From contig CBDDTI010000295.1 of assembly GCA_965233585.1 (NCBI GenBank), positions 64,001 through 128,000 on the forward strand: a stretch of 64,000 nt of DNA, written 5' to 3'. The translations under genes were made by a program, and so were the position numbers. Source of the stretch: a bacterium. GTDB lineage: Bacteria; SAR324; NAC60-12. This document shows, piece after piece, positions 1-23,003 of this stretch. The stretch's first letter is position 1, and each line of letters begins with the position of its first letter. Under the pieces are notes generated by a model. It was given only the letters and a program-made list of their open reading frames with translations. It did no database searches and was not told where the DNA came from.

Positions 1-1
1 A

Positions 2-913
2 TTGCGTGCGGGACAAGTCAGGCAGGTCGTCAGTTTTTATTTTGACATCTTGCATGACGGACGCACCACCTTGCAAGGTATCAAACAACAAGCCATTGAC
101 ATTGAAACAAACTACACTTATGAGGAAGCCGATGAGTTGATTGAGACACAAGAGACTTTTTGGGGAACGTTTTCAAGGTATTTGGAGGCAGTACGATTAC
201 TTCGTTTGGAAGAAGGGGCTTTGGACTTTCCACATCAAGAAGTAGAAATCAAAACACAAGATGCAATCCAAATCACTCTGGTAGATCGCAATACTGCTGC
301 TAATCGTTTAATAGAAGAACTTGCTGTTTTGGTCAACCAGACATCAGGAGCCTTTTTTTGTCAAAATCAAATCCCTGCTTTGTACCGCACTCAAACCTAT
401 GACATTTTGCAAGAACCCCCGGAAGGTGAGCCATTCAAACGAAGCGATGTCAGACTAGCAAGCACTCAAACCTCCACAATCCCCGCAGCTCATCAAGCAC
501 TGGGTTGTTTAAATTACGTCCAAAACACCTCTCCTATTAGAAGATTTTCTGACCTCGTCATGCAATCGCAAATGACACACTTTCTACAACATCAAACCCC
601 TTTATTTGATGAAGACACTTTGATTGGCTACATGCCACAAATTGACACACGTCAACGTGCTTACAACTCTGCCACAAAAGACCTAGAAACCCACTGGAAG
701 TTTAAATACCTCAAACAACACGAAGGAGAAACCTTTACAGGACGCATTCAAAGAAGCCTGTCTTATGGACGTGTAGAAATCTTGCTAGATGCCATTCTTC
801 TCACCTTTGCACATTCCAAAATTGACGCACCTCATCAACTCCCCTTACTCTTCAAAATCCAAACAGTTGACTTAGAACACCGCACAGCCTCTGTCTTTCT
901 TCAATCACTTTAA
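2..913 (+). CDS. RNase II/RNase R family (RNB domain) exoribonuclease, 5'-truncated by the window edge
   Basis: ANRLIEELAVLVN and TSPIRRFSDL RNB motifs, followed by an S1-like C-terminus; the ORF is open at the window start. Confidence 0.85.
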   Translation: MRAGQVRQVVSFYFDILHDGRTTLQGIKQQAIDIETNYTYEEADELIETQETFWGTFSRYLEAVRLLRLEEGALDFPHQEVEIKTQDAIQITLVDRNTAANRLIEELAVLVNQTSGAFFCQNQIPALYRTQTYDILQEPPEGEPFKRSDVRLASTQTSTIPAAHQALGCLNYVQNTSPIRRFSDLVMQSQMTHFLQHQTPLFDEDTLIGYMPQIDTRQRAYNSATKDLETHWKFKYLKQHEGETFTGRIQRSLSYGRVEILLDAILLTFAHSKIDAPHQLPLLFKIQTVDLEHRTASVFLQSL

Positions 914-1041
914 AAAAGAACTGACCAGATTGTCCTAAATTTCATAATCAGAAGGGAGAATTTGGGAAGCAAAGAAGGAACCTTGCCTTTGAAAGAAGTT
1001 GAAAGAAAGAGAACTAAATCGGCTTATAAAGGAAAAGAACT

Positions 1042-1114
1042 CTAGCTTTTTTGCAAAAGCTAGGTTTGAGATTTAGAATTGAGGAATCCCTAGCCTTCTT
1101 TGCAAAAGGCTAGG
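1042..1114. repeat. Double palindrome downstream of each FN3 gene (other copies at about 3494-3564, 6208-6278, 8676-8746, 11396-11505)
   Basis: CTAGCTTTTTTGCAAAAGCTAG (1042-1063) and CCTAGCCTTCTTTGCAAAAGGCTAGG (1089-1114), both centred on TTGCAA. Confidence 0.85.
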
Positions 1115-1126
1115 AAAAGGGGAAGA

Positions 1127-3283
1127 TTAGAAACTGACCCAAGAAGAACACCCATTTGCGTTACAAGCTTTGACTTTATAACTTTTGGTCACTGACCTAA
1201 ATGAGGTCTGTGTCGTAGTCCCACCTCCTCCTCTATCACTTGTCATATAGTAAGTAGCACCTGAGACAGATGACCAGCTATGAGAATACCCACCAGAAAT
1301 GCGTACCCTTCTAGCATTTCTTGGAGGAAAGGGATAACTAGGAGTCATAATAGAAGCAGTGTTAGACCAAGAGCAACTACCACTAGAATTACAAGTTTGG
1401 ACTCGGTAATAGTATCCTGTATTGATACTTAAACTAGATGAGGTATCTGTGAAATTTGGCGTGGTCGGTATCCCAACCTTTGTATCAGAATCTGTCACAG
1501 TGCTACCAGTATCTCTGTAAACGTGATACTTAGATGCACCAGAAACTCCAGACCATGAAATCCTCACTCTTCCTTTATTAGAACCACTGGAAAGAATAGA
1601 CAAACTAATGCTGACAGGAGAAGGTGCAGTCTTAATAGAGGCAACGTTAGACCAAGAACAACTACCGCTAGAATTACAAGTTTGGATTCGAAAATGGTAG
1701 GTTGTGTTGGCAGTCAATTCAGCACTCACTATGAATCCCACTGTGGTAAATATCCCAATTTTCGTACCAGGAGGGTTGCTGGTATCGCCGTAAATGTGAT
1801 ATTTAGACGCACCTGAAACTGCAGACCATGTCCCCTGAATCTTCCCTTTGTAAGTCCCTGAAGTGACAATAGACATGCTGAGGCTGACAGCAGAAGGTGG
1901 AGACTTAATAGATTTTGCAACAGATTTTGCAGAACAGCCTGCCGCATTACAAGCATCTATTTTGTAGTAGTATGTTGTGTTAACGCTAGCAGTGGTGTCT
2001 GTATAGTCTGGTGTGTTCTCTGTACTGATTTTAGAGAATCCACTGCTTGCACTGGTGCTTCTGTAAACAGTGTAGCTTGTCGCTCCAGTCACGCTATCCC
2101 AGTTTATTCTGATCTTTCCTGCACTACTATCATCAGCACCAAGTATGGAAACGCTCTTGATTGTGGGAGTGTTAGGCTTGGACACTGCCCCCGGTAGATT
2201 CACACCAGCAGAAGCAACAGAAAGAGATGAGCAACCTGCAACATTGCATGCCTTCACTTTGTAGTAATAAGTTGAGCCTCTGGTTGCCGTATCTGTGTAA
2301 GTCGTGCCTGAATTGACTGTCGCTACTTTGGAGCTAAATGCACCACCACTGCTTGTGTCACTGTACACCTCATAACTTGTTGCTCCAGACAATCCACTCC
2401 AAGACACCGTGATTGTCGTCGCAGAGGCTTTTGCTGCTGTCGGCTTGCTAGGTGCATTGGGCTTGGACACTGCCCCCGGTAAATTGACACCAGCAGAAAC
2501 AACGGAAAAAGATGAACACCCTGACGCATTGCATGCCTTCACTTTGTAGTAATAAGTTGCCCCTCTGGGTGCTGTATCTGTGTAAGTCGTGCCTGAATTG
2601 ACTGTCGCTACTTTGGAGCTAAATGAACCACCGCTGTTGGTGTCACTGTACACTTCATAGCTGGTTGCTCCAGACACTGCAATCCAAGACACTGTGATTG
2701 TTGTTGCAGAGGCTTTCACTGCTGTCGGTTGAGATGGACTGCTAGGTGCAGAACCAGATGGCGAACTCGGAGACGAAGGAGGTCCAGATGGAGAATCAGA
2801 CGGAGAGCTGGAAGGGGAACGTGGAGAACTGGCAGGAACAACCTTGAAGTCTTCACTAAATTTAGCACCTAGCACCCTGCCTGACACTTTGCCTGTTCCC
2901 ATTTTTAAACCCTTGACCTGTACTTTCTTCTCAAAATCTGACTTCTTGTCTAAAATCAAAATCAAAGATCCTGTCTCTGCTTCAGAGTCTAATTTGCCAT
3001 CTTCCTTGTAAACTTTGATAGAAATCAGGTCTTTGTTATATTGAACTTTTAACTTTTTGCCTTGATAAAGAGAGCCAATATTTGTGCAACTGATCTTTGC
3101 CTCTTTCACAACGTCTTTTTGCAACGTCCCTTTTGCACTCAAATCACATTGAGGCTTTTCTGAACTCTGTGCGTCGTCTTCACTGCTTTCTCCTGCTGGA
3201 GGTTGACAAGCCACGAACACAAACATCAACAACCCAAACGAAAGTTTCCATAACTTCCACGATTTTTTGACTTTTCCAAACAT
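1127..3283 (-). CDS. FN3-repeat surface lipoprotein, paralog 1 (5 full FN3 modules plus a short terminal module)
   Basis: ATG at 3283 with GGGAG upstream; lipobox VFVAC; Ser/Pro linker; repeated W...Y.VY...YYYKVKACNxxGCS FN3 pattern; ends GCSSWVSF. Confidence 0.85.
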   Translation of the reverse strand: MFGKVKKSWKLWKLSFGLLMFVFVACQPPAGESSEDDAQSSEKPQCDLSAKGTLQKDVVKEAKISCTNIGSLYQGKKLKVQYNKDLISIKVYKEDGKLDSEAETGSLILILDKKSDFEKKVQVKGLKMGTGKVSGRVLGAKFSEDFKVVPASSPRSPSSSPSDSPSGPPSSPSSPSGSAPSSPSQPTAVKASATTITVSWIAVSGATSYEVYSDTNSGGSFSSKVATVNSGTTYTDTAPRGATYYYKVKACNASGCSSFSVVSAGVNLPGAVSKPNAPSKPTAAKASATTITVSWSGLSGATSYEVYSDTSSGGAFSSKVATVNSGTTYTDTATRGSTYYYKVKACNVAGCSSLSVASAGVNLPGAVSKPNTPTIKSVSILGADDSSAGKIRINWDSVTGATSYTVYRSTSASSGFSKISTENTPDYTDTTASVNTTYYYKIDACNAAGCSAKSVAKSIKSPPSAVSLSMSIVTSGTYKGKIQGTWSAVSGASKYHIYGDTSNPPGTKIGIFTTVGFIVSAELTANTTYHFRIQTCNSSGSCSWSNVASIKTAPSPVSISLSILSSGSNKGRVRISWSGVSGASKYHVYRDTGSTVTDSDTKVGIPTTPNFTDTSSSLSINTGYYYRVQTCNSSGSCSWSNTASIMTPSYPFPPRNARRVRISGGYSHSWSSVSGATYYMTSDRGGGGTTTQTSFRSVTKSYKVKACNANGCSSWVSF

Positions 3284-3325
3284 CTCTTTTCTCCCGCATC
3301 TTGGGCTAGGCAATAAAAGGGAATT

Positions 3326-3355
3326 ATTCTACCCAAGACTCACAGGAAATGTCAA
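3326..3355 (-). promoter_or_regulatory. Putative sigma70 promoter of FN3 paralog 1
   Basis: TTGACA-N18-TAGAAT on the minus strand, conserved upstream of paralogs 1-4. Confidence 0.65.
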
Positions 3356-3575
3356 TGAAAATTTTGATCAGGGTTGATGTGTCTCAACTCATGTTTTGAA
3401 TCAGGCAGCAACTTGAGCCTTCCTTTGCCAAAGGAGTGTGTTTGAGAATGTGGTACGAAGCAAGACAACAATGAGAGTGAGAAGAAAAGAACCCAGCTTT
3501 TTTGCAAAAGCTAGGTTTGAGATTTAGAATTGAGGAATCCCTAGCTTTCTTTGCAAAAGGCTAGGAAGGGAGAGA

Positions 3576-6023
3576 TTAGAAATTGACCCAAGCAGAACAC
3601 CCATTGGAATTGCATGCCCTGACTGATGTGTATGTTCTAGGTGAGAAAAGTGCAACAGTGCCATGATTTATAATAGAACCGTCAGACTTAAGGAGCTGGT
3701 ATGAAGCCGATGAAACAGGTCCCCATCTGTAATAATCTCCTGACTTTTTAGCAAATCCTGGAGCAGAAGGATAATTAGGAGTCGTAATAGAGGGAGTGTT
3801 AGACCATGAACAATTACTAGAATTACAAGTTTGAACTCGGTAATAATATTTTGTATTACCACTTGCAGACGTATCTGTGACGTTCGGTGAGGTCTCTGTT
3901 GAAACCTTTGTATCAGAATCTGTCACAGTGCGACTGGTGTCTCTATAAATGTGATATTTAGACGCACCTGAAACTCCAGACCAAGTCACCCTCACTCTCC
4001 CTTTATCGGCACCGCTAGAAAGAGTGGACAAACTAATGCTGACAGGTGAAGGAGGAGTCGTAATAGAGGCAGTGTCAGACCAAGAGCAACTGCCACCACT
4101 ATTACAGACTTTCATTCGGTAATAGTATTTTTGATTTGAGGATGATGTTCCATCTGTTCTTTTTCTTGAACTCGCACGAGGAATATTAGGATAAGTGGCA
4201 ATTTTTGTATCAGAGTCTGTCACATCACTACTGGTGTCCCTATAGACGTGATATTGACGTCCCTGTGCGGCCAAAGACCATGAAAATACTACTTTCCCTT
4301 TATGGGAACCATCATCTCTGATGCTCAAAGTGAGGGGAGCTGGCTTTGGAGGTGCAGACTTAATAGACTTGACAGCAGAATCTGCAGAACAGCCTGCCGT
4401 ATTACAAGCATTTATTTTGTAGTAGTATGTTGTGTTAACGCCAGCAGTGGTGTCTGTCATGCCTGACGTGGTCTCTGTGCTGATTTTAGAGAATCCACTG
4501 CTTGCACTGGTGCTTCTGTAAACATTGTAGCTGGTCGCTCCAGTGATGCTATCCCAGTCTATTCTGACCTTTCCTGCACTACTATCATCGGCACCAAGTA
4601 TGGAAACGTTGATTGTAGGGACACTGGGTTTGGACACTGCCCCCGGCAGATTGACACCAGCAGAAGCAACAGAAAGGGATGAACAACCTGAAGCATTGCA
4701 TGCCTTCACTTTGTAGTAATAAGTTGACCCTCTGGGTGCTGTATCTGTGTAAGATGTACCTGAATTGACTGTTGCCACTTTGGAGCTAAATGAACCACCA
4801 TCGCTTGTGTCACTGTACACCTCATAACTTGTTGCTCCAGACACTCCACTCCAAGACACCGTGATTGTTGTTGCAGAGGCTTTCACTGCTGCCGGCTTGC
4901 TAGGTGCATTGGGCTTGGACACTGCACCCGGATTGACACCAGCAGAAGCAACAGAAAGAGATGAGCAACCTGCCGCATTGCATGCCTTCACTTTGTAGTA
5001 ATAAGTTGACCCTCTGGGTGCTGTATCTGTGTAAGATGTACCTGAATTGACCGTTCCTACTTTGGAGCTAAATGCACCACCACCGCTTGTGTCACGATGC
5101 ACTTCATAACTGGTTGCTCCAGTTTTTGCACTCCAAGACACTGTGATTGTTGTTGCAGAGGCTTTCACTGCTGTCGGCTTGCTAGGTGCATTGGGCTTGG
5201 ACACTGCACCCGGTAAATTGACACCAGCAGAAACCACGGAAAAAGATGAACAACCTGAGGCATTGCATGCCTTCACTTTGTAGTAATAAGTTGCCCCTCT
5301 GGGTGCTGTATCTGTGTAAGTTGTGCCTGAATTGACCGTTGCTACTTTGGAACTGAATGACCCAATACTGCTGGTATCGCTGTACACTTCATAACTGGTT
5401 GCTCCAGACACCCCATTCCAAGACACTGTAATTGTTGTCGCAGAGGCTTTCACTGCTGTCGGTTGAGATGGACTGCTAGGTGCAGAACCAGATGGCGAAT
5501 CAGACGGAGAACTCGGATACGAAGGAGAGCCAGAAGGAGAATCAGACGGAGAACTTGGTGAACTCAAACTAGCAGGAACAACCTTGATTTCTGCACTAAA
5601 TCTGGCACTTAATACTTTGCCTGACACCTTGCTTGATCCCAGTTTTAATCCCTTGACCTGTACTTTCTTTTCAAAATCTGACTTCTTGTCTAAAATCAAA
5701 ATCAAAGACCCTGTCTCTGCTGCAGAATCTACCTTGCCATCTTCCTTGTAAACTTTGATAGAAACCAAGCCTTTATTATACTGGACTTTTAACTTCTTGC
5801 CTTGATAAAAGGAGCCGATGTTTGTGCAAATGATCTTTGCCTCTTTCACAACATCTTTTTGCAACGTTCCTTTTGCACTCAAATCACATTTGGGCTTTTC
5901 TGAACTCTGTGTGTCGTCTTCACTGCTTTCTTCTGCTGGAGGTTGACAAGCAACAAAGACAAACATCAACAATCCAAACGGAAGTTTCCATAACTTCCAC
6001 GATTTCTTTGCTTCTCCAAACAT
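3576..6023 (-). CDS. FN3-repeat surface lipoprotein, paralog 2 (6 full FN3 modules plus terminal module)
   Basis: Same N-terminus (MFGEAKK...FVAC); three copies of the KASATT module instead of two; ends GCSAWVNF. Confidence 0.85.
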   Translation of the reverse strand: MFGEAKKSWKLWKLPFGLLMFVFVACQPPAEESSEDDTQSSEKPKCDLSAKGTLQKDVVKEAKIICTNIGSFYQGKKLKVQYNKGLVSIKVYKEDGKVDSAAETGSLILILDKKSDFEKKVQVKGLKLGSSKVSGKVLSARFSAEIKVVPASLSSPSSPSDSPSGSPSYPSSPSDSPSGSAPSSPSQPTAVKASATTITVSWNGVSGATSYEVYSDTSSIGSFSSKVATVNSGTTYTDTAPRGATYYYKVKACNASGCSSFSVVSAGVNLPGAVSKPNAPSKPTAVKASATTITVSWSAKTGATSYEVHRDTSGGGAFSSKVGTVNSGTSYTDTAPRGSTYYYKVKACNAAGCSSLSVASAGVNPGAVSKPNAPSKPAAVKASATTITVSWSGVSGATSYEVYSDTSDGGSFSSKVATVNSGTSYTDTAPRGSTYYYKVKACNASGCSSLSVASAGVNLPGAVSKPSVPTINVSILGADDSSAGKVRIDWDSITGATSYNVYRSTSASSGFSKISTETTSGMTDTTAGVNTTYYYKINACNTAGCSADSAVKSIKSAPPKPAPLTLSIRDDGSHKGKVVFSWSLAAQGRQYHVYRDTSSDVTDSDTKIATYPNIPRASSRKRTDGTSSSNQKYYYRMKVCNSGGSCSWSDTASITTPPSPVSISLSTLSSGADKGRVRVTWSGVSGASKYHIYRDTSRTVTDSDTKVSTETSPNVTDTSASGNTKYYYRVQTCNSSNCSWSNTPSITTPNYPSAPGFAKKSGDYYRWGPVSSASYQLLKSDGSIINHGTVALFSPRTYTSVRACNSNGCSAWVNF

Positions 6024-6066
6024 CTCTTTTCTCCTGTATCTTGGGCTCAGACAATAAAAGGGCTCT

Positions 6067-6096
6067 ATTCTAACCAAGACTCACAGAGAACGTCAA
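6067..6096 (-). promoter_or_regulatory. Putative sigma70 promoter of FN3 paralog 2
   Basis: TTGACG-N18-TAGAAT. Confidence 0.6.
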
Positions 6097-6295
6097 TGAA
6101 AATTTTGATATAGAGTTGATGCAATTCAATCCATGTTGTGAATCAAGCGGTTACTTTAGCTTTCCTTTGCCAAAGGGGACAACAATGAGAGTAAGAAGAA
6201 AAGAACCCAGCTTTTTTGCAAAAGCTAGGTTTTGGATTTTGGAATTGAGAACTCCCAGCCCTTTTGCAAAAGGCTAGGAAAGGGAGAAAAGTGAC

Positions 6296-8464
6296 CTAAA
6301 AATAAGACCAAGACGAACACCCATTGGAATTGCATGCCTTGACTCTATCGTATTTTGTACTTGAAGAAAATGAGGTAACTGACTTATTCGCACTTCTCCC
6401 ATAATAGTCCACCACATAGTAAGTAGCTCCTGAAACAGATGACCAACTGTAAGAAAAGCTAGCCCAACTAGCAGTCCTGCTAGCATTTTTTGGAGCAGAT
6501 GGAGCTGGAGGTTTGGGAGTTGTAATAGAAGGAGTATTAGACCAAGAACAACTACCACCAGAATTGCAAGTTTGAACTCGGTAATAATATTTTGTATTTG
6601 CACTTGCAGACGTATCTGTGACGTTCGGTGTGGTCTCTGTTGAAACCTTTGTATCAGAGTCTGTCACAGTGCTACTGGTGTCTCTGTAAATATGATACTT
6701 AGATGCACCAGAAACTCCAGACCATGAAACCCTCACTTTTCCTTTATTGCTACCACTGGAAAGAGTAGACAAACTAATGCTGACAGCAGAAGGTGGAGTT
6801 TTAATAGAAGGAGCATTAGACCATGAACAACTGCCACTAGAATTACAAGTTTGGACTCGGTAATAGTAGGTTGTGTTGGCATTATTCAAAGAAGAAGTAT
6901 CTGTGACGTTCGGTGTGGTCTCTGTTGAGATCTTTCTATCAGAATCTGTCACAGTGCTACCGGTGTCTCTATAAATGTGATATTTAGATGCACCTGAGAC
7001 TGCAGACCAAGTTACCCTCACTTGTCCACTGTCAAGAATAGACAAACTGATGCTGACAGCAGAAGGTGGAGACTTAATAGATTTCGCTGCAGATTTTGCA
7101 GAACAACCTGCCGCATTACAAGCATCTATTTTGTAGTAATAGGTTGTATTGGGGGTGGCAGAGGTGTCTGTTTTGTCTGGTGAGTTCTCTGTGCTAATTT
7201 TAGAGAATCCACTGTTTGCATTGGTGCTTCTGTAAACATTGTAGCTGGTCGCTCCAGTCATACTATCCCAGTCTATTCTGACTTTTCCTGCATCACCACT
7301 ACTAGCACCGAATATAAAAACCCTTTTGATTGTAGGAGTAGGAAACGCACTTGGTAAATTGACACCATCAGAAACCACGGAAAGAGATGAACAACCTGCA
7401 ACGTTACATGCCTTCACTTTGTAGTAATAAGTTGCCCCTCTGGTTGCTGTGTCTGTGTGAGTTGTGCCTGAATTGACCGTTCCTACTTTGGAGCTAAATG
7501 AACCACCACTGCTTGTGTCCCGATACACTTCATAAGTAGTCGCCCCAGTTTCCCCACTCCAAGACACCGTGATTGTTGTTGCAGAGGCTTTTGCTGCTGT
7601 CGGCTTGCTAGGTGCATTGGGTTTGGACACTGCCCCCGGTAAATTGACACCAGCAGAAGCAACAGAAAGAGATGAACAACCTGACGCATTGCATGCCTTC
7701 ACTTTGTAGTAATAAGTTGCCCCTCTGGGTGCTGTATCTGTGTAAGATGTGCCTGAATTGACCGTTCCTACTTTGGAGCTAAAGGAACCACCACCGCTTG
7801 TGTCCCGATACACTTCATAACTTGTTGCTCCAGTTTTTGCACTCCAAGACACTGTGATTGTTGTTGCAGAGGCTTTCGCAGCAGTCGGTTGAGATGGACT
7901 GCTAGGTGCAGAACCAGATGGAGAATCAGACGGAGAACTCGGAGACGAAGGAGAGCCAGATGGAGAATCAGACGGAGAACTGGAAGGGGAACGTGGAGAA
8001 GATGGCAGACTAGCAGGAATAACCTTGAAATCTTCACTAAATTTAGCACTTAGCACCCTACCTGACACTTTGCCTGAACCTAATTTTAATCCCTTGACCT
8101 GTACTTTCTTTTCAAAATCTGACTTCTTGTCTAAAATCAAAATCAAAGAACCCTTCTCTGCCTCAGAATCTAATTTGCCATCTTCCTTGTAAACTTTGAT
8201 AGAAATCAGGTCTTTGTTATACTGGACTTTTAACTTCTTGCCTTGATAAAGAGAGCCGATGTTTGTGCAACTGATCTTTGCCTCTTTCACAACATCTTTT
8301 TGCAACGTTCCTTTTGCACTCAAATCACATTGAGGCTTTTCTGAACTCTGTGCGTCGTCTTCACTGCTTTCTCCTGCTGGAGGTTGACAAGCCACGAACA
8401 CAAACATCAACAATCCAAACGGAAGTTTCCATAACTTCCACGATTTCTTTGCTTCTCCAAACAT
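6296..8464 (-). CDS. FN3-repeat surface lipoprotein, paralog 3 (5 full FN3 modules plus terminal module)
   Basis: Same architecture and lipobox; ends GCSSWSYF. Confidence 0.85.
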   Translation of the reverse strand: MFGEAKKSWKLWKLPFGLLMFVFVACQPPAGESSEDDAQSSEKPQCDLSAKGTLQKDVVKEAKISCTNIGSLYQGKKLKVQYNKDLISIKVYKEDGKLDSEAEKGSLILILDKKSDFEKKVQVKGLKLGSGKVSGRVLSAKFSEDFKVIPASLPSSPRSPSSSPSDSPSGSPSSPSSPSDSPSGSAPSSPSQPTAAKASATTITVSWSAKTGATSYEVYRDTSGGGSFSSKVGTVNSGTSYTDTAPRGATYYYKVKACNASGCSSLSVASAGVNLPGAVSKPNAPSKPTAAKASATTITVSWSGETGATTYEVYRDTSSGGSFSSKVGTVNSGTTHTDTATRGATYYYKVKACNVAGCSSLSVVSDGVNLPSAFPTPTIKRVFIFGASSGDAGKVRIDWDSMTGATSYNVYRSTNANSGFSKISTENSPDKTDTSATPNTTYYYKIDACNAAGCSAKSAAKSIKSPPSAVSISLSILDSGQVRVTWSAVSGASKYHIYRDTGSTVTDSDRKISTETTPNVTDTSSLNNANTTYYYRVQTCNSSGSCSWSNAPSIKTPPSAVSISLSTLSSGSNKGKVRVSWSGVSGASKYHIYRDTSSTVTDSDTKVSTETTPNVTDTSASANTKYYYRVQTCNSGGSCSWSNTPSITTPKPPAPSAPKNASRTASWASFSYSWSSVSGATYYVVDYYGRSANKSVTSFSSSTKYDRVKACNSNGCSSWSYF

Positions 8465-8507
8465 CTCTTTTCTCCTGTATTTTGGGTCTAGGCAATAAAA
8501 TGGGTCT

Positions 8508-8537
8508 ATTCTACCCAAGACTCACAGAGAATGTCAA
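8508..8537 (-). promoter_or_regulatory. Putative sigma70 promoter of FN3 paralog 3
   Basis: TTGACA-N18-TAGAAT. Confidence 0.65.
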
Positions 8538-8759
8538 TGAAAATTTTGATACAAAGTTGATGTGTCTCAACCCATGTTGTGAATTAAGCAGTGACTTGAA
8601 CCTTCCTTTGCCAAAGAAGTGTATTGAGAATGTCATACAAAGTAGGGACAACAACGAAGTGAGAAGAAAAGAACCCAGCCTTTTTGCAAAAGCTAGGCTT
8701 GGGATTTTAGAATTGAGAACCCCCTAGCCTTCTTGCAAAAGGCTAGGAAAAGGGAGAGA

Positions 8760-8810
8760 TTAGAAAATAGTCCAATCAGAACCCCCAATGGCATTGCATG
8801 CCCTGAGTTT
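8760..8810 (-). pseudogene. Out-of-frame relic of the FN3-lipoprotein terminal motif
   Basis: Translates as KLRACNAIGGSDWTIF*, matching the xRACNxxGCSxWxxF* ends of the other paralogs; starts 1 nt after the paralog 4 stop. Confidence 0.8.
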
Positions 8811-8811
8811 A

Positions 8812-10416
8812 TTATGGAGTCCTAACAGAGACAGTATTAGACCAAGAGCAACTTCCGCTAGAATTACAAGTTTGAACTCGGTAATAGTATATTGTATTTC
8901 TATTTAATCTGGCTCTGTCTACGACGTTGGGTGTGGTCTCTGTTGAAACCTTTGTATCAGAATCTGTCACGGTGCTACTGGTGTCTCTATAAATGTGATA
9001 TTTAGATGCACCTGAGACTGCAGACCAAGTGATCTTCGGTCTTGAGTTATACAAATTCACAAAATGCATAGATCCGCTGATGCTGGCAGCAGAAGGTGGA
9101 GATTTAATAGATTTCGCTGCAGATTTTGCAGAACAGCCTCCCGCGTTACAAGCATCTATTTTGTAGTAATAGGTTGTATTGGCGGAGGCAGTGGTGTCTG
9201 TCTTGTCTGGTGAGTTCTCTGTGCTAATTTTAGAGAATCCACTGTTTGCATTGGTGCTTCTGTAAACATTGTAGCTTGTCGCTCCAGTCACGCTATCCCA
9301 GTCTATTCTGACTTTTCCTGCATCACCACCACTAGCACCGAGTATGAAAACCCTTTTGATTGCTGGGGTTGGAGGAGGCATTGCAACACCAGTAGAAGCA
9401 ACAGAAAGAGATGAACAACCTGCTGCGTTGCATGCCTTCACTTTGTAGTAATAAGTTGCCCCGCCGGGTGCTGTATCTGTGTGAGTTGTGCCTGAATTGA
9501 CCGTTCCTACTTTGGAGCTAAAGGAACCACCACTGCTTGTGTCCCGATACACTTCATAAGTTGTTGCCCCAGTTGCTGCACTCCAAGATACCGTGATTGT
9601 CGTTGCAGAGGCTTTCACCGCTGTCGGCTTGCTAGGTGCATTGGGTTTGGACACTGCCCCCGGTAAATTCACACCAGCAGAAACCACGGAAAGAGATGAA
9701 CAACCTGCCGCATTGCATGCCTTCACTTTGTAGTAATAAGTTGCCCCTCTGGGTGCTGTATCTGTGTAAGTCGTGCCTGAATTGACCGTTCCTACTTTGG
9801 AGCTAAAGGAACCACCACCGCTTGTGTCCCGATACACTTCATAACTGGTTGCTCCAGACACTGCACTCCAAGACACTGTGATTGTTGTCGCAGAAGCTTT
9901 CACTGCTGTCGGTTGAGATGGACTACTAGGTGCAGAACCAGATGGCGAATCAGACGGAGAACTGGCAGGAACAACCTTGAAGTCTTCACTAAATCTGGCG
10001 CTTAACACCCTGCCTGACACCTTGCCTGTTCCCATTTTTAAACCCTTAACCTGTACCTTCTTTTCAAAATCTGACTTCTTGTCTAAAATCAAAATCAAAG
10101 ATCCCGTCTCTGCTTCAGAGTCTAATTTGCCATCTTTCTTATAGGCTTTGATAGAAATCAGGTCTTTGTTATACTGGACTTTTAACTTCTTACCTTGATA
10201 AAGAGAGCCGATATTTGTGCAACTGATCTTTGCCTCTTTCACAACATCTTTTTGCAACGTCCCCTTTGCACTCAAATCACATTGAGGCTTTTCTGAACTC
10301 TGTGTGTCGTCTTCACTGCTTTCTTCTGCTGGCGGTCGGCAAGCCACAAATACAGACATTACCAACACAAACGAAAGTTTCCACAACTTCCACGATTTTT
10401 TGACTTCTCCAAACAT
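8812..10416 (-). CDS. FN3-repeat surface lipoprotein, paralog 4 (4 FN3 modules, terminal module lost)
   Basis: Lipobox VFVAC; shortest Ser/Pro linker; ends SVRTP* with an out-of-frame remnant of the family C-terminus just downstream. Confidence 0.85.
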   Translation of the reverse strand: MFGEVKKSWKLWKLSFVLVMSVFVACRPPAEESSEDDTQSSEKPQCDLSAKGTLQKDVVKEAKISCTNIGSLYQGKKLKVQYNKDLISIKAYKKDGKLDSEAETGSLILILDKKSDFEKKVQVKGLKMGTGKVSGRVLSARFSEDFKVVPASSPSDSPSGSAPSSPSQPTAVKASATTITVSWSAVSGATSYEVYRDTSGGGSFSSKVGTVNSGTTYTDTAPRGATYYYKVKACNAAGCSSLSVVSAGVNLPGAVSKPNAPSKPTAVKASATTITVSWSAATGATTYEVYRDTSSGGSFSSKVGTVNSGTTHTDTAPGGATYYYKVKACNAAGCSSLSVASTGVAMPPPTPAIKRVFILGASGGDAGKVRIDWDSVTGATSYNVYRSTNANSGFSKISTENSPDKTDTTASANTTYYYKIDACNAGGCSAKSAAKSIKSPPSAASISGSMHFVNLYNSRPKITWSAVSGASKYHIYRDTSSTVTDSDTKVSTETTPNVVDRARLNRNTIYYYRVQTCNSSGSCSWSNTVSVRTP

Positions 10417-10458
10417 TGCTTCTCTCCTGTAATTGAGTTTAAAAAATAAAATGGGTCT

Positions 10459-10488
10459 ATTCTACCCAAAACTCACAGAGAATGTCAA
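10459..10488 (-). promoter_or_regulatory. Putative sigma70 promoter of FN3 paralog 4
   Basis: TTGACA-N18-TAGAAT; an IS is inserted 11 bp upstream of the -35. Confidence 0.65.
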
Positions 10489-10499
10489 GAAAAATTTTG

Positions 10500-11259
10500 G
10501 GCATTGTTAAGTAATAAGTGATAGCTGATTATTCCGTTTTGCCATGAACAAAAGAACAGAATATTGTAATGCTTTAAGAGACTTGCTGTAACATTTGGTT
10601 TTCCTTCTCATTCTTGCCAAGAAATGTCTCAAGAGAGAATTATACCCTTCTATCGTGTATGTTTCTGCCTTGGAACATGTATGAATTTCTTTGGGAATGA
10701 CTTGTTTGTAAGCCTTGCAGTGATCAGTCATCACCTGAAGAGGTTTTGTTTCCTTGACCTTGTCCCATAAATGCCTACAGGCTTTTGAGTCTCTGTTTCC
10801 AAGCACATAATTGATAAATTGCTTCCCACGTCTATCAACAGCAATCCAGAGCCAGCAGTAGTTTTTTTTGACTGGATGTAGGTGTGCATTTCATCAATTT
10901 CCATAATTTCAATGTCTGTGTCCTTTCTTAATGCCTTGAGCTGTTCGCCAAAACTACAGACCCAATTATAAACTGAAACATGAGAACAATTCAGCAAACG
11001 ACCGATTGACCTGAAACCAAGACCCTCCAAATACAACTCTAATGCTCTTCTTTTGATCTGTGGTGAGATTTGACCACGATAGGACTTGGTATATTGATAG
11101 TTGCAGGCATTGCAACGCCTCCTCGGTTTACCATATAAAAAACCATTCTTAACCGTCTTCTCACTTTCACATCTAGGACACAACTTCATTGCTACACCAT
11201 GACTATCAATTCAATTAAATGAAATTAATATCGCATATCACTTATAGTTTAACAATACC
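10500..11259 (-). mobile_element. IS1-family insertion sequence, copy 1 (760 bp)
   Basis: Imperfect 24 bp terminal IRs GGCATTGTTAAGTAATAAGTGATA / GGTATTGTTAAACTATAAGTGATA; 8 bp target duplication AAATTTTG (10492-10499, 11260-11267); InsA/InsB-type ORFs. Confidence 0.95.
10507..11189 (-). CDS. IS1 transposase InsAB, expressed by -1 frameshift (InsA frame 10731-11189, InsB frame ending at 10507)
   Basis: CPRC...CNAC zinc ribbon plus HTH; DEMH, TDH and IEGYN DDE residues; slippery A8C at 10861-10869. Confidence 0.9.
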
Positions 11260-11517
11260 AAATTTTGATATAGAGTTGATGATTCAATCCATGTTGTGCA
11301 TCAAGCGGTTACTTTAGCTTTCCTTTGCCAAAGAGGTGTATTGAGAATGTCATACAAATTGGGGACAACAATGAGAGTAAGAAGAAAAGAACCCAACTTT
11401 TTTGCAAAGCTAGGTTTGAGATTTGGACAGCTTTTTTGTAAAAGCTAGAAAAGCTAGGTTTGAGATTTGGAATTGAAAAACCCTAGCCCTTTTGCAAAAG
11501 GCTAGGGAAGGGAGAGA

Positions 11518-13638
11518 TTAGAAAAACGTCCAATCAGAACAACCTGCCAAGTTACATGATCTGACAAAGGCATATGAGTTGGTAGATATAATCTTGGTGG
11601 ATGTGGTACGTCTTATTGAAAAGTCACGAGTGTCCATCAACTGATAGTAAGAAGCCCCTGAGACTGCAGACCAAGAATAGGTATTTCCCCTATGCTTAGC
11701 ATTGGTTGGCTTAGCTGGAGCAGTAGAAAGCAGTGTAATAGATTCAGTGCTAGACCACGAACAAACACCACCAGAATTACAAGTTTGGACTCGGTAGTAG
11801 TAGGTTTTATCCGTACTGACAGAAGTATCTGTGACGTTTGGTGTGGTCTCGGTTGAAACCTTGTGGTCTGATCCACCTACACGGCTATCGGTATCTCTGT
11901 AAATGTGATATTTAGACGCACCTGAAACCCCAGACCAAGTCACCCTCACTTTTCCTGCATTAGGACCACTGTCAAGAATAGACAAACTGATGCTGACAGG
12001 TGGAGGTCCAGTTTTAACAGAAGCCGTGTTAGACCATGAACAACTACCGCTAGAATTACAAGTTTGGATTCGGTAATAGTGGGTTGTATTGGGACTTGGG
12101 TCATCTAGGGTGTCTGGTGAGGTCACAGTTGAAACCTTTCTATCAGAGTCTGTTACAGTGCTGGTGGTGTCTGTATAAATGTGATATTTAGATGCACCTG
12201 AAACCCTAGACCATGTCACAAATACATTTCCATTGACAAAAAGAGACAAACTGATGCTGGCAGGAGAAGGTGGAGACTTAATAGATTTTGCAACAGATTG
12301 ATCAGAACACCCTGCTGCATTACAAGCATCTATCTTGTAGTAATAGGTTGTGTTAGGGGAGGCAGTGGTGTCTGTCTTGTCTGGTGTGTTCTCTGTGCCA
12401 ATTTTAAAGAATCCAAAGCTTGCACGGGTGCTTCTATAAACATTGTAGCTGGTCGCTCCAGTCACGCTATCCCAGTCTATTCTGATCTTTCCTGCACTAG
12501 CATCATCAGCACCAAGTATGAAAACGCTCTTGATTGCTGGGATTGGAGGGGGCAGTGCAACACTAGCAGAAACAACAGAAAGAGATGAGCAACCTGCCAC
12601 ATTGCATGCCTTCACTTTGTAGTAGTAAGTCACCCCGCCGGGTACTGTATCTGTGTAAGCCGTTCCTGAATTGACCGTTCCTACTTTGGAACTAAATGAA
12701 CCACCGCTACTTGTGTCACGATACACTTCATAGCTTGTTGCTCCAGACGCTGCACTCCAAGACACCGTGGTTGCCGTCGCTGAGGCTTTCACCGCTGTCA
12801 GCTTGCTAGGTGCATTGGGTTTTGACAACGCCCCCGACAAATTCACGCCAGCAGAAATAACAGAAAGAGATGAACAACCTGCCGCATTGCATGCCTTCAC
12901 TTTGTAGTAATAAGTTGCCCCTCTAGGTGCTGTATCTGTGTAAGTCGTGCCTGAATTGACTGTCGCTACTTTGGAACTAAATAAACCACCGCTACTTGTG
13001 TCGCTATACACCTCATAACTGGTTGCTCCAGAAACTGCACTCCAAGACACCGTGATTGTTGTTGCAGAGGCTTTCGCTGCTGTCGGTTGAGATGGACTGC
13101 TAGGTGCAGAACCAGATGGCGAATCAGACGGAGAACTTGGTGATGAAGGTGAGCCAGACGGAGAACTTGGAGATGATGGCAGGCTAGCAGGAACAACCTT
13201 GAAGTCTGCATTAAATCTAGCACTCAATACTTTACCTGTCACCTTGCCTGAACCCAGTTTTAAACCCTTGACTTGGACTTTCTTCTCAAAATCTGACTTC
13301 TTATCTAAAATCAAAATCAAAGACCCTGTCTCTGCCTCAGAATCTACTTTGCCATCTTCCTTGTAAACTTTGATAGAAATCAGGTCTTTTTTGTACTGAA
13401 CTTTTAGCTTCTTACCCTGATAAAGGGAATTGATGTTGGAACAACTAATCTTTGCCTCTTTCGCAACATCTTTTTGCAACGTCCCTTCCGCACTAAAGTT
13501 ACATTGGGGCTTCTCTGAACTCTGTGTGCTTTCTTCGCTACTTTCTTCTGCTGGCGGTTGACAAGCCACAAACACAGACATCACTAATCCAAACGAAAGT
13601 TTCCATAATTTCGGAGACTTCTTTACTTCTTCAAACAT
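11518..13638 (-). CDS. FN3-repeat surface lipoprotein, paralog 5 (first in transcription order)
   Basis: Lipobox VFVAC; AGGAGG RBS; 5 FN3 modules plus a terminal module ending GCSDWTFF. Confidence 0.85.
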   Translation of the reverse strand: MFEEVKKSPKLWKLSFGLVMSVFVACQPPAEESSEESTQSSEKPQCNFSAEGTLQKDVAKEAKISCSNINSLYQGKKLKVQYKKDLISIKVYKEDGKVDSEAETGSLILILDKKSDFEKKVQVKGLKLGSGKVTGKVLSARFNADFKVVPASLPSSPSSPSGSPSSPSSPSDSPSGSAPSSPSQPTAAKASATTITVSWSAVSGATSYEVYSDTSSGGLFSSKVATVNSGTTYTDTAPRGATYYYKVKACNAAGCSSLSVISAGVNLSGALSKPNAPSKLTAVKASATATTVSWSAASGATSYEVYRDTSSGGSFSSKVGTVNSGTAYTDTVPGGVTYYYKVKACNVAGCSSLSVVSASVALPPPIPAIKSVFILGADDASAGKIRIDWDSVTGATSYNVYRSTRASFGFFKIGTENTPDKTDTTASPNTTYYYKIDACNAAGCSDQSVAKSIKSPPSPASISLSLFVNGNVFVTWSRVSGASKYHIYTDTTSTVTDSDRKVSTVTSPDTLDDPSPNTTHYYRIQTCNSSGSCSWSNTASVKTGPPPVSISLSILDSGPNAGKVRVTWSGVSGASKYHIYRDTDSRVGGSDHKVSTETTPNVTDTSVSTDKTYYYRVQTCNSGGVCSWSSTESITLLSTAPAKPTNAKHRGNTYSWSAVSGASYYQLMDTRDFSIRRTTSTKIISTNSYAFVRSCNLAGCSDWTFF

Positions 13639-13830
13639 GACTTCCTCCTTACTTCTAATTTAATGAACAAAAAATAAATAAAAAATGAAATTACATTTTA
13701 CATGGTTTTTAGGACGGTTCAAATAAAAAATAATTTTTTATTGTTTTTACAAAAAATTCTTCTGCAGGAAGAGACTTCAGACGATTCATCAAAGTCTTGT
13801 ATGATGACAAGTCTCAAAGGCAGACTTGAA

Positions 13831-16377
13831 TCAAATCAACCAATTTTCGCCAATTCCGATTTCTATTTTTAAGGGAACTTCTAAGAAGATGACATGTTCC
13901 ATGTCTTGTTGAATCAAGGCACAAAGCTCCTGTTGTTCTTCTTTTGGAACATCAAACACTAGCTCATCATGTACAGACAACACCATTTGGGATTGCATCT
14001 TTTTTTGTTGCAAATGGCGGTCAATGTTGACCATCGCCAGTTTGATGATTTCAGCAGCAGAGCCTTGAATGGGGGTGTTGATTGCCGCACCTTCAGCCGC
14101 ACTTTTAGCAAGTCCTTCTCCTTGAATGGCAGGCAAATAACGTCTTCTTCCCATCAAGGTCTGAGCATAGTTTTCTTTGCGGGCAAAGTTTAAAAGCTCT
14201 TCTTGCAAAATGTGAATGCAAGCATATTTTTCAAAAAACTTAGCAATGAAGTCTTTTGCTTGGTCTTTGGAGGTATTGGAGACGTTTGAGAGTTTGTCAG
14301 CCCCCATGCGATAAATGAGACCAAAGTTGACTTCTTTGGCTTTTGACCTCATCTGCCTTGTGACGCCCTCTAATGGAACATTGAAAATGGTTGAGGCTGT
14401 GATGGCATGAATGTCCTCATCGTTACGAAATGCTTGCAAAAACGTTGGGTCTTTGGAAAAGTGAGCGGCAACTCTTAATTCAATTTGACTGTAATCTGCC
14501 TTGATTAAAAGATGGTCTTTGGAAGAAGGTATAAAAAATTGTCTGATCCTTCGCCCATGTTCTGTGCGGATTGGAATATTTTGCAAATTAGGGTGGTCAG
14601 AGGCTAAGCGTCCTGTGGCAGTGGCAGTTTGCTTGAATGAGGAATGAATCCGACCTGTCTGGCTGGCAAACTTTGGCAGTGGCAAGACGTAAGTGTTTTG
14701 AAGTTTAGACAACTCACGGTATTTCAAGAGTAATTGAGGCAGTTCCAGTTGTTGCATTTTGGCAAGGGTTTCTTCATCAGTTGACATGCCATTGCCTGTT
14801 TTAATTTTTTTAGGCTTAATTTGACACTTTTTGTGAAGTTCCAGCTTGTCATAAAGAATTTTCTGCAACTCAACAATAGAATTGATGTTAAAAATCTCTC
14901 CTGATGCTTGGTAGATTTTGGCTGTCAGTGTGTCAAGTTCTGTTGCAAGCTCTTTGGCATATTCTTGACAGGATTCTTGATTGAAACAAACCCCAACTTG
15001 CTCCATTTTTGACAGCACACGGACAAGAGGAAACTCCAAAGTCTCATACAAATCCACTGCACCAATCACTTGGAAACGTTCTTTGAAAAAAGGCGCAAGT
15101 TGCCAAAGCTGTTGAATGTATTGATGCCCAGCATGCTCCACTTTAGGGAGGTCATTTGTCTGTGAGGTGAGATGAGCTACCAGCTGCACGTCAAACAAGT
15201 CAACCTGTTGCCAGTCTATCTCAAAATGCTGTAAGCCACGATAAAGCTCTTTGGCATCTTTGACAATAACCTGACGAGAACCATCAAAGCATCGTCCAAA
15301 AAACGACACTAATTGCTCTTTGGAAAAATCCTTAAACCCAATGTCGCACACTTGATTTGATTGGTAGCAAACCGAAACACCTGACACCGCATCTGAATCA
15401 GTACAATAGTTGAGACTGATTGCAAAATTTTTGACGACTTGTAGTAATTCATCAAGCTGTTTGAGAGTTTCAACAGCAATCACCTCTGTTTGTTCAGAAA
15501 CAACAGGTTTGGTTTTTTTCAGTGAGAATTGTTTCAACAAAGAGGGGAACTCTAACTCCTCTAAAATTCCAATCAATTCGTCATTGCCTTCTAGGAGTGT
15601 TGGGTCAAACTGCATGGCGTCCCAGTCAAAATCAATAGGGACATCACGTCTGATGGTGGCTAATTTCTGTGAAAGCCAAGCATTGTCTTGGGAGCGGATT
15701 AAATTCTCTTGAACCCTTTTCTGTCGGATTGCACTGATGTTGTCATAAATACCTTGCATTGAACCATACTCTGCCAGCAGCTTTTTTGCAGTTTTTTCAC
15801 CAATGCCTGCTACACCGGGAATGTTATCGGAGCTATCACCTATCAAACCAAGTGCATCAGGAACGTATTGAGGGCTACAACCAAATTTTTCAAAAACTGC
15901 CTCTTGGTCTAGCAAATCACCTGCTGAATTGAGAATGCGGGTAGTGTCAGAAACAAGTTGCAAGTAGTCTTTGTCATTGGTCAAGATGATGGTTTCCATT
16001 GTTTTTTGTTCTGCAAGGCTTGAAAGTGAGCCGATGATGTCATCAGCTTCCCAGCCGATTTGAGTCCAATAGGGAATGTCTAGGCTTTTTGCAAAACGTT
16101 TCAAGTATGGGAATTGGGCAATCAAATCTTCAGGAGTCTGCTGACGTGTCGCCTTGTATTGCGGGAAGATTTCATGCCTAAAAGTAGGTTCTGGCAAATC
16201 TGATGCCAGTGCAAAGTAGTCTGGTTTTTCTTTTTTAAGTAGGGTTAAGATTTGTTTAAAAAATCCATGCAAGGCACTGACGTTCATGCCTTTAGAATTG
16301 ATCAAAGGTCGGTGAATCAAGGCAAAATGATGACGATAGAGCAGTGCCATGCAATCTACTGCAAACAAACGTCTCAT
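13831..16377 (-). CDS. polA: DNA polymerase I
   Basis: 5'-3' exonuclease (EADD, GDSSDNIPGV); polymerase motifs TGRLAS, PNLQNIP, DYSQIELR, VHDEL; short, degenerate 3'-5' exonuclease region. Confidence 0.97.
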   Translation of the reverse strand: MRRLFAVDCMALLYRHHFALIHRPLINSKGMNVSALHGFFKQILTLLKKEKPDYFALASDLPEPTFRHEIFPQYKATRQQTPEDLIAQFPYLKRFAKSLDIPYWTQIGWEADDIIGSLSSLAEQKTMETIILTNDKDYLQLVSDTTRILNSAGDLLDQEAVFEKFGCSPQYVPDALGLIGDSSDNIPGVAGIGEKTAKKLLAEYGSMQGIYDNISAIRQKRVQENLIRSQDNAWLSQKLATIRRDVPIDFDWDAMQFDPTLLEGNDELIGILEELEFPSLLKQFSLKKTKPVVSEQTEVIAVETLKQLDELLQVVKNFAISLNYCTDSDAVSGVSVCYQSNQVCDIGFKDFSKEQLVSFFGRCFDGSRQVIVKDAKELYRGLQHFEIDWQQVDLFDVQLVAHLTSQTNDLPKVEHAGHQYIQQLWQLAPFFKERFQVIGAVDLYETLEFPLVRVLSKMEQVGVCFNQESCQEYAKELATELDTLTAKIYQASGEIFNINSIVELQKILYDKLELHKKCQIKPKKIKTGNGMSTDEETLAKMQQLELPQLLLKYRELSKLQNTYVLPLPKFASQTGRIHSSFKQTATATGRLASDHPNLQNIPIRTEHGRRIRQFFIPSSKDHLLIKADYSQIELRVAAHFSKDPTFLQAFRNDEDIHAITASTIFNVPLEGVTRQMRSKAKEVNFGLIYRMGADKLSNVSNTSKDQAKDFIAKFFEKYACIHILQEELLNFARKENYAQTLMGRRRYLPAIQGEGLAKSAAEGAAINTPIQGSAAEIIKLAMVNIDRHLQQKKMQSQMVLSVHDELVFDVPKEEQQELCALIQQDMEHVIFLEVPLKIEIGIGENWLI

Positions 16378-17207
16378 GCCCCAACCTCAAGGTAAGACTT
16401 AAGAAAAACCAAAATCGTCTGGCTAAACTTAGGACCGCGTCTGAAGAAGAATTGTTGAGCTTGGGAATACTCCAACATCTCTGCTTTTCCTTGCAAAATG
16501 AGTTCTCCGTTGGAATCACGTTGCGGCTTGGTCTTTTTGCCACTGACAAAAATGACAGCCTCAAAGTCAATCGCTTCAATGTCAATGATGAGTCTTGATG
16601 CAGCTAGGGTCAAAGGAAGGTGAAAGGCACGTTCTACAAAATGGAATCCCACAAACTCTGCAACAGCCTGAATGTCACTTTCAGACATGTTCACAGCATA
16701 AGTCATCATGTCTTGGCGGAATTGCTCAAACAATGGTCCTTTTCTCTTGAGGTATTTTAAAGGGATTGATTGTGTTTCAGAATATTTGACAACCATGTCC
16801 TGGAACAAATCAAAGAAGCTCCGACCACCCAAAACGGGTTCATACTGCAAAAATTGTGAGATAAAATCATTGACAATGGCACGTCCTCTTTTCAACCTCT
16901 GTAAACTTTCAACACGAACGGTGAGACGGTCTAGTTCTGCCAGCAATGCTTTGTTTTGTTCTTCAAGAGACTGCCGAGCCACGTCACCGCTTTCTATCAG
17001 CTGTTGAAGCTTTGTTACTTCAATATTGTCTGGTTCAGAAGTTTCAGGTTCAGAGTTGAAAGCAGGTTGCTGTTTGGAAATTTGGACTTCAAGGGCTTGA
17101 ATTTGACGTTGCTTCCACTGGGAATAAAGCCAATACGAGCCAAAAGCAAAAGTGACCAGTAAAATCAGCAGGAGTGAGACCCAACGAAAAGTGGTAGAAT
17201 CAGACAT
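16374..17207 (-). CDS. Hypothetical membrane-anchored coiled-coil protein
   Basis: N-terminal TM helix and coiled coil; overlaps the argG stop and polA start. Confidence 0.7.
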   Translation of the reverse strand: MSDSTTFRWVSLLLILLVTFAFGSYWLYSQWKQRQIQALEVQISKQQPAFNSEPETSEPDNIEVTKLQQLIESGDVARQSLEEQNKALLAELDRLTVRVESLQRLKRGRAIVNDFISQFLQYEPVLGGRSFFDLFQDMVVKYSETQSIPLKYLKRKGPLFEQFRQDMMTYAVNMSESDIQAVAEFVGFHFVERAFHLPLTLAASRLIIDIEAIDFEAVIFVSGKKTKPQRDSNGELILQGKAEMLEYSQAQQFFFRRGPKFSQTILVFLKSYLEVGA

Positions 17208-18430: not shown

Positions 18431-18591
18431 GTTTTCTTCTCCAAATTTTTGATAAAAATCAACCAGTCTATCACTCTTGCAAGAGTTTGAATATAGGATT
18501 TCAAACTCCAAATGCACTTCAGTCAAACAAACTTCCAAAAGACTCTATCTTCGGTTTTGAGTTTTGAAAAAAGATTTTTTCCATGAATGAC

Positions 18592-18620
18592 TTGTCTTTT
18601 AAAAAAATAAGTGCCATACT
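18592..18620 (+). promoter_or_regulatory. Putative sigma70 promoter for rpoBC
   Basis: TTGTCT-N17-CATACT about 170 nt upstream of rpoB in a divergent intergenic region. Confidence 0.55.
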
Positions 18621-18765
18621 AGAGGGTTTTGGTTTCTATGGCAAATTTCTGTGCTGCTCCCCTTTTTTTCAAAATTTTTGAGTCTTCCTTTGGTCTTCAT
18701 CAATTCTCTGACATGTTCTGAATTTGGGGAGGTCTCCCTTGCCAGCAAAGAAAGCCTCTTTTTTT
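18621..18765 (+). other. Candidate structured rpoB leader (nested rod-like hairpin followed by a T run)
   Basis: Nested complementary segments AGAGG/CCTCT, TTTCT/AGAAA, TGGCAA/TTGCCA, CTCCCC/GGGGAG, then T7. Confidence 0.4.
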
Positions 18766-18790
18766 AACTTTATGTTTAGGATTAGATAGT

Positions 18791-22960: not shown

Positions 22961-23003
22961 GGTTTTTCAAAAATAATAACACTCAAAAGCAAATAGGAAG
23001 CCT

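Follow-up and report, generated by a model that had tools for sequence, protein, structure and literature searches.

The stretch of DNA analysed here (the window: 64,000 nt, positions 64,001 to 128,000 of contig CBDDTI010000295.1 in assembly GCA_965233585.1, from a SAR324 bacterium) raises the question of what a bacterium might do with five neighbouring lipoprotein genes that are alike at the anchored end of their products and widely different at the other. Between a gene for an RNB-domain protein and polA lie five paralogous open reading frames (ORFs) on the minus strand (1127-13638), here termed gA to gE. Each encodes, in order, a lipoprotein-type signal, an acidic tether, a 107-aa N-domain with two cysteines, a Ser/Pro linker and a series of fibronectin type III (FN3) modules. 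The reading that we favour, at a probability of roughly 0.6, is that the products are rods anchored in the outer membrane, in which a constant stalk would carry distal modules, each set with partners of its own on what is probably an animal host, and that the cassettes have been remodelled by recombination. The array itself is a real feature of the sequence.

The five genes share the start MF(G/E) behind an AGGAG-like site, and the signal MF..KKSWK..LLMFVFVAC, with its basic N-region, hydrophobic stretch and lipobox Cys (FVAC), was read from the sequence in all of them. As first reported, the same-strand paralogs vary in both linker length and module number: gA (1127-3283, 718 aa) has a linker of 29 aa and six FN3 modules, gB (3576-6023, 815 aa) 31 aa and seven, gC (6296-8464, 722 aa) 36 aa and six, gD (8812-10416, 534 aa) 12 aa and four, and gE (11518-13638, 706 aa) 28 aa and six. 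Using our own class labels, the modules follow a fixed order, K(2-3)-D-S(1-2)-T(0/1). This is realised as K-K-D-S-S-T in gA, gC and gE (terminal module T at 1130-1327, 6299-6502 and 11521-11715, respectively), as K-K-K-D-S-S-T in gB (T at 3579-3764) and as K-K-D-S in gD. The preliminary description had counted a terminal module in every gene, which does not hold for gD: it ends after S, and a relic of 16 codons, KLRACNAIGGSDWTIF*, lies out of frame 3' of its stop on the minus strand (8760-8810). All five products score above the cut-off for Pfam fn3 (PF00041), none contains a catalytic domain recognised by Pfam, and their Ser+Thr content is 26-30%.

Amino acid identity between the genes falls from the base towards the tip. 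The signal and N-domain are 82-95% identical, for which "near-identical", as the preliminary description had it for a lipoprotein N-domain of about 145 aa, is too strong. The same wording also overstated the likeness of the proximal modules with the KASATT motif, since K1 is 87-96% and the last K 79-90% identical between genes, and K modules within one gene are 75-89% identical. Identity is 71-91% in D, 42-72% in the first S, 67-87% in the second S and 34-53% in T. Divergence thus does rise towards the C-terminus, but not monotonically. The four T modules share a motif, [YH]xWxxVSxAxY. A Cys pair is kept in all 29 modules, as had been claimed, although the spacing CNxxG(x)C applies to 28 of them and the sixth module of gB reads CNSSNC instead.

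Selection along the protein follows the same gradient. The ratio of non-synonymous to synonymous divergence (dN/dS, by the NG86 method of Nei and Gojobori) is 0.13 in the N-domain, 0.18 in K1, 0.27 in the last K, 0.50 in D, 0.57 in S1, 0.37 in S2 and 0.81 in T. At equal dS in D (0.27) and K1 (0.26), dN is almost threefold higher in D. A maximum likelihood codon model gave an omega of 0.25 for the proximal and 0.5 for the distal part (p = 3e-6). Constraint is therefore relaxed in the distal modules. The analysis of dN/dS proposed in the preliminary description consequently bore out non-uniform divergence from base to tip, and the claim that variation is concentrated towards the tip holds for amino acid change among paralogs; between the two samples that contain the array, no difference was seen in three tips.

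Module trees built for each segment are incongruent with one another. All 15 topologies of the five genes were compared per segment with the approximately unbiased (AU) test. The best tree for the N-domain (AD|BE, the letters standing for the genes) is rejected by K1 (p = 0.0009), by the last K (2e-5) and by D (0.0015); conversely, the N-domain rejects the tree preferred by K1 and D (AB|CD; p = 0.004), and D rejects that of the last K (AB|DE; p = 0.007). Incompatibility at this level (p ≤ 0.004) indicates that the genes are mosaics. The FN3 segment trees group neighbouring genes, which is what unequal crossover or gene conversion predicts. Compatibility between adjacent informative sites is also higher than after shuffling (p = 1e-4), as is the frequency of shared splits (p = 0.011). 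The suggestion of unequal crossover and module swapping is thus supported by segment trees that reject each other, by the variable numbers of modules and linker residues, and by a sixth paralog that joins the same base to another distal part.

This paralog, gF (C295:226365-228224), lies 150 kb from the array on the same contig, in a locus that extends to 229087 with a relic and a copy of the insertion sequence (IS) IS1. Its promoter region is that of the array genes, and DNA identity to them is 86-88% in the N-domain and 90-92% in K1. The next three FN3 modules reach 55-66% in forced DNA alignments, and no close copy of them exists elsewhere. Immediately 3' of the gF stop, 104 nt are 98% identical to the S module of gD, followed by IS1 without a target duplication; the junction between stop and relic is bridged by a 958-nt contig in two of four sequencing runs, both from one sample. 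These sequences are the trace of array sequence having recently moved between loci.

The array or its mosaic pattern could in principle be an artefact, created when similar genes of mixed strains were assembled together. The stretch is present in four runs from two samples of one study, and the assembly may itself have been made from the best of these runs. None of the listed contigs spans the whole array, one run of the four (one of the three from its sample) contains a joint from 6141 to 11300 that would delete gC and gD, and a frameshifted copy of gA, split into 459 and 273 aa (P0001, P0042) and otherwise identical to gA, lies on another contig of 12 kb. Against this, depth was found in 30/30 bins in all four runs, and the unique pieces 1065-1409, 3897-4509, 6203-6596, 8451-8959 and 11366-11995 show no differences in any of them. 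Three tips, those of gA, gC and gE, fall within these pieces, as does the gD relic (8451-8959), with the gB tip lying outside them. The differences that are listed are confined to N-domain, K, spacer and IS sequence, where paralogs cross-map. The aberrant joint has a depth of 3.7 and 34 ambiguous letters and is probably a graph artefact, or else a rare deletion, and the split gA is probably a sequencing frameshift. Six marker genes are single-copy in the genome (E 1e-10), and the differences between the paralogs bear the mark of purifying selection. As far as contigs show, the array is not an assembly collapse, and we regard an artefact as a very remote prospect.

The N-domain reaches well beyond the array. 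An iterated profile retrieved 35 ORFs in the genome, all on the bacterial contigs, carrying FN3 modules (7), Kelch-like repeats (10), RCC1 repeats (5) or an unnamed domain that starts near the residues KMQD (13, one of them truncated); Pfam was run on 12 of the 35 in addition to the array genes. For one RCC1 gene (C747:529196), a label "FN3+RCC1" from a regular expression was dropped, as Pfam recognised RCC1 only. Kelch and KMQD cargoes interleave on the N-domain tree. In three gene pairs the N-domains are near-identical and similarity stops at the end of the domain, the closest pair having 4 differences in the last 110 residues. Exchange of cargo on one anchor thus recurs across the family. 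The preliminary description had allowed for the N-domain belonging to a characterised family. It has no Pfam match, but neither is it particular to these FN3 proteins, being an anchor common to 35 genes with four unrelated types of cargo.

The sister clade of the FN3 genes forms tandem clusters with Kelch or KMQD cargo on contigs C745, C746, C747 and C729 (e.g., C747:432654-442030, C747:983643-993907 and C746:321968-329469), and in one gene there (C746:325792) the lipobox Cys codon is replaced by a stop. Giant lipoproteins whose N-terminal region is of another type, and which combine a varying number of FN3 modules with a Kelch propeller and, at the C-terminus, the same KMQD domain, are found at C746:93947-99199, C747:901554-905894 and C747:942280-946002, and at C723:34812-39764 and C729:133442-136078, where the ORFs are cut by contig ends. 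C745, C746, C747 and C295 additionally hold many more FN3 proteins with Pfam scores above those of the array (e.g., C746:583674-584207 and C745:63937-65583), which form a separate expanded family.

Outside this genome the N-domain is scarce. Its profile matched none of 63 other genomes of the order; no match was obtained in 30 relatives with gE as the query or in JGI metagenomes with the N-domain of gA; phmmer with gA residues 20-155, over protein lengths of 394-1257 aa, returned only proteins of this organism; and the ESM Atlas gave no match above 0.79. Among 1.84 billion representative proteins, 36 matched at E ≤ 0.001. Eleven of these were examined: four come from this genome, three more are repeat proteins that match in part only, and the other four come from elsewhere, each on a single contig, with FN3 plus Kelch (P0018), KMQD (P0020), no cargo (P0021, a fragment) and RCC1 (P0027). 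P0018 groups with the FN3 clade, with a Shimodaira-Hasegawa-like approximate likelihood ratio test (SH-aLRT) support of 94.

In gA the N-domain (2834-3154, minus strand) is predicted with high confidence (predicted local distance difference test score, pLDDT, of 90) as a sandwich of ten beta strands containing the conserved Cys pair. The closest folds are cohesin modules of glycoside hydrolases (Z 10.4 and 10.0; best root mean square deviation 2.7 over 104 aligned residues, at 12% identity), and Foldseek returned PAD4 and S-layer domains. No sequence match at E 0.001 was found in Pfam, NCBIfam or the PDB, so that the cohesin sequence family is not matched, and a predicted homodimer scored 0.19 against a mark of 0.42. 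The model thus suggests a generic beta-sandwich, from which no function follows. For the FN3 region, a model of the gA D-S-S-T modules matches FN3 tandems (best E 2e-10), and bacterial FN3 modules, 3mpc and 5g56 among them, are the solved structures nearest in sequence, with a weak match to the FN3 part of the exoglucanase CbhB.

Such neighbours, together with a fold nearest to cohesins, would fit rods that bind targets other than a host, such as polysaccharide, particles trapped in mucus, skeleton or bacteria taken as prey; the FN3 modules would then serve as spacers or glycan binders, a role they have in carbohydrate-active enzymes. Since the five genes have no catalytic domain, their neighbours are the RNB gene and polA, and the cohesin match lies within 1 Z of the unrelated beta-sandwiches of complement C3 (9.8) and alpha-2-macroglobulin (9.7), we consider this highly unlikely.

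The unit of duplication in the array is a cassette of promoter, gene and terminator. The spacers are homologous (79-88% in blastn pieces), and each duplicated spacer contains a sigma-70-like site, TTGAC(A/G)-18-TAGAAT, the four sites being the best minus-strand matches of the region. In the gB-gA spacer (3284-3575) a terminator-like hairpin (3517-3490) precedes the promoter-like TTGACA-18-TAGAAT (3355-3326); in the gC-gB spacer (6024-6295) the hairpin is at 6231-6204 and TTGACG-18-TAGAAT at 6096-6067; and in the gD-gC spacer (8465-8759) they are at 8699-8672 and 8537-8508. The gE-gD spacer (10417-11517) has hairpins at 11507-11481 and 11416-11390 and a promoter-like site at 10488-10459, and is split by an IS1-family element (10500-11259, also minus strand) that has an 8-bp target duplication, AAATTTTG, and lies 11 bp upstream of the gD -35 box. 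It is one of 33 copies of IS1 longer than 700 nt in the genome. A further minus-strand hairpin (1042-1063) closes the array after gA, ahead of the convergent RNB-domain gene (2-913). Four genes score 10-11 of 12 against the promoter consensus; gE, which has a different upstream region, scores 9. Across the region 33 promoter-like sites were found against 19.7 expected, and 24 terminator-like sites against 11.6 expected. Judged by consensus matching, the array genes look like transcription units independent of one another.

Homopolymer tracts (G/C ≥ 6 or A/T ≥ 7) are absent from the 135 nt that precede the lipobox Cys in all six genes of the FN3 clade. With its own promoter-like site and no slippery tract, each of the five array genes would be expressed alongside the others and not switched. 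In the rest of the family, 14 of 29 genes have runs of G6-G9 in the signal region, several of them out of frame with the ATG at the DNA level. This bears on the alternative of a variable coat or decoy directed against phages, grazers or innate receptors of the host, and not serving partner binding. A constant base with a variable exposed end and a Ser+Thr content of 26-30% would suit it, and the poly-G tracts suggest on/off switching in many sister-clade genes. The FN3 genes nevertheless lack such tracts, three of their tips are invariant in two samples and the genome holds no template copies of the tips. A coat is on this evidence quite unlikely for the array.

The case for a host begins with the assembly. 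Five large contigs agree in composition (r ≥ 0.99) and are densely coding; together with C723 they amount to 2.96 Mb. Of about 12 Mb, the remaining ~9 Mb are mostly low-coding contigs, the listed contamination being 2%. Nine of ten long ORFs chosen from these contigs belong to retroelement, tetratricopeptide repeat (TPR)-array, ciliary Ig or class C G protein-coupled receptor (GPCR) families, and the low-coding contigs are largely animal-type DNA. A metazoan signal recognition particle (SRP) RNA and a 16S primer site were not found, and the host is accordingly described as animal-type. As for the bacterium, the best named relatives of its MetG are from "SAR324 cluster bacterium" at 58%, and two others reach 74-77%; an RpoB scan gave only matches of about 50% and no placement. 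Matches to fn3 number 70 in the assembly (with 70 out of 103 candidates scored, and nine or more of the matches outside the six bacterial contigs), compared with 0-25 in the 63 other genomes.

Lipobox processing lipidates the Cys, the residue at +2 governs sorting, and tandem FN3 modules form rods. With no Asp at +2, the lipoproteins would be passed by the Lol system to the outer membrane; LolA, VKOR and two secretins are present in the genome. DsbB was not found in it, VKOR being a substitute for DsbB, and the Cys pairs may be oxidised by a VKOR-type pathway. A search for Slam gave no match, as did its control. Tether, N-domain, Ser/Pro linker and homogenised K modules would together form the constant stalk, and the D, S and T modules would carry the binding surfaces. 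Recombination between neighbouring copies would keep the stalks similar, and the tips would meanwhile diverge by drift or by selection. The tether has a mean charge of -3.5, compared with -1.2 in 78 other lipobox ORFs; this is not used as evidence because the family members are related and three were mis-anchored.

Several results weigh against host-binding rods remodelled by recombination. Matches to fn3 occur in 36 of the 64 genomes, FN3 lipoproteins are also present in relatives, and co-assembly with animal DNA does not prove symbiosis. With respect to mosaicism, S1 alone does not discriminate among the trees, and the split-sharing test for clustered informative sites gave p = 0.66 after thinning. 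The model of the terminal module is of low confidence (pLDDT 34-63, from a single sequence), and the two samples do not differ in the tips of gA, gC or gE, bearing in mind that contigs drop rare variants. The tip of gD has been lost while its reading frame stayed open. Finally, the pooled distal omega is below 1 (twice the log-likelihood difference, 2dL, 38.6), with T by itself being compatible with 1 (2dL 2.0), and positive selection was not detected by M2a over M1a in N, K, D, S or T (p = 1, 0.63, 0.33, 0.14 and 0.063; our own code, 4-13 sequences per class, with recombination present). "Diversifying", as the preliminary description has it, is accordingly not supported if taken to mean positive selection.

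These last results would suit birth-and-death drift, with a stalk homogenised by gene conversion and folding constraint, distal modules under less constraint, redundant copies, and an array made by dosage or by IS-driven duplication. The non-significant M2a tests, the distal omega of 0.5, the lost gD tip and the abundance of IS1 in a 2.96-Mb genome all agree with it. Drift does not readily account for five intact frames whose omega is far under 1 in six out of the seven segments, for a nearly threefold rise in dN from K1 to D at equal dS, or for an exchange of cargo that recurs across the family, and we judge it unlikely.

Beyond the favoured reading of host-binding rods, a broader role of the anchor is conceivable, if doubtful. 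The N-domain with its acidic tether may be a lineage-specific surface-display module that routes any fused cargo to the surface, a plug-in platform for FN3 rods, Kelch and RCC1 propellers and the unnamed domain, swapped by recombination and split into a poly-G-switchable branch and an always-on FN3 branch. On this view the 35 genes would serve an animal-associated SAR324 lineage as a repertoire for recognising its host.

The nearest known parallel is found in the Lig proteins of Leptospira (LigA, LigB, LigC), surface lipoproteins of tandem Ig-type domains in which, as here (K1 87-96%, T 34-53%), proximal domains are alike and distal ones unique. According to one account, the first six domains are almost the same in LigA as in LigB and the rest unique, following duplication and recombination, and duplication was accompanied by loss of a C-terminal part (PMC7821625). 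The Lig domains are Big_2 (PF02368), whereas those of the array are FN3 with a Cys pair, with no Big_2 match at E 0.01 in the five genes. There are three lig genes, compared with a five-gene tandem array within a 35-gene family, and the array has no Big_5 extension and instead a separate N-domain with swappable cargo. Host binding has been shown for Lig, and is a prediction for the present system. By analogy, the array would work like the Lig proteins, without being a member of them.

FN3 domains are reported to be enriched in sponge symbionts (PMC5524777, PMC9944714, PMC11706023). Eukaryotic-like repeat proteins of marine-invertebrate symbionts resemble the present case in an FN3 count far above that of relatives and in a proposed host interaction. 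The passages compared give domain counts; they mention neither a lipoprotein anchor shared between proteins nor cassettes in tandem nor mosaic genes, and do not list Kelch or RCC1. At the Ureaplasma MBA/UU172 loci of variable lipoproteins, one 5' end is switched by site-specific inversion among surface proteins with conserved N-terminal and differing C-terminal parts (PMC3047005). In the array, by contrast, a promoter-like site and a complete 5' end belong to every gene, and no recombinase gene was found among the ORFs of 1-20000. The type of locus used in cassette switching (MBA, shufflon), with a single expressed 5' end and silent 3' ends, is absent here, where there are five full genes. The poly-G contingency lipoproteins of the same genome share the N-domain family and the layout, and differ in their Kelch or unnamed cargo and G6-G9 tracts. 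For a diversity-generating retroelement (DGR), blastn of the four tips against the assembly (92% complete) gave only self and short paralog matches as candidate templates, and no DGR reverse transcriptase was seen among the ORFs read in the window, no genome-wide search for it having been made. Searches of the open-access literature yielded no description of this layout for SAR324, none of this family and nothing closer.

Elsewhere in the window, rpoB-rpoC (18791-27095) is preceded by a divergent argG and followed by a thioesterase-like gene and metG, with the usual neighbours rplJL absent among the listed ORFs. An ABC-type permease-like ORF (33143-34183, 346 aa) looks short for its kind and is possibly truncated. 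A perfect (ATCCGCA)17.4 repeat (37577-37698) occupies the 5' end of a 416-aa ORF beside another IS1 copy. Two nearly identical tandem genes at 40092-41847 resemble transposase-like nucleases of the Rpn/PD-(D/E)XK type. Flagellin-like genes, at least five in tandem, lie at 55159-63966, with arrays of 165-170-nt repeats in the spacers 59755-60430 and 62157-62658.

Taken alone, the array is a good example of a familiar design, in which lipid anchor, constant stalk and variable end are combined as in pathogens such as Leptospira; the added element is the anchor domain, which is unclassified and has had its cargo swapped, in a SAR324 lineage that is probably associated with animals. As judged from its genes, the family of 35 is likely to be a repertoire of surface-binding proteins of that lineage. 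If the favoured reading is true, it would supply concrete candidates, suited to expression, for host recognition by this uncultured lineage. It would add a new and unclassified anchor domain in which cargo exchange is directly evidenced, and a small natural set of FN3 variants of the disulfide type for the comparison of binding.

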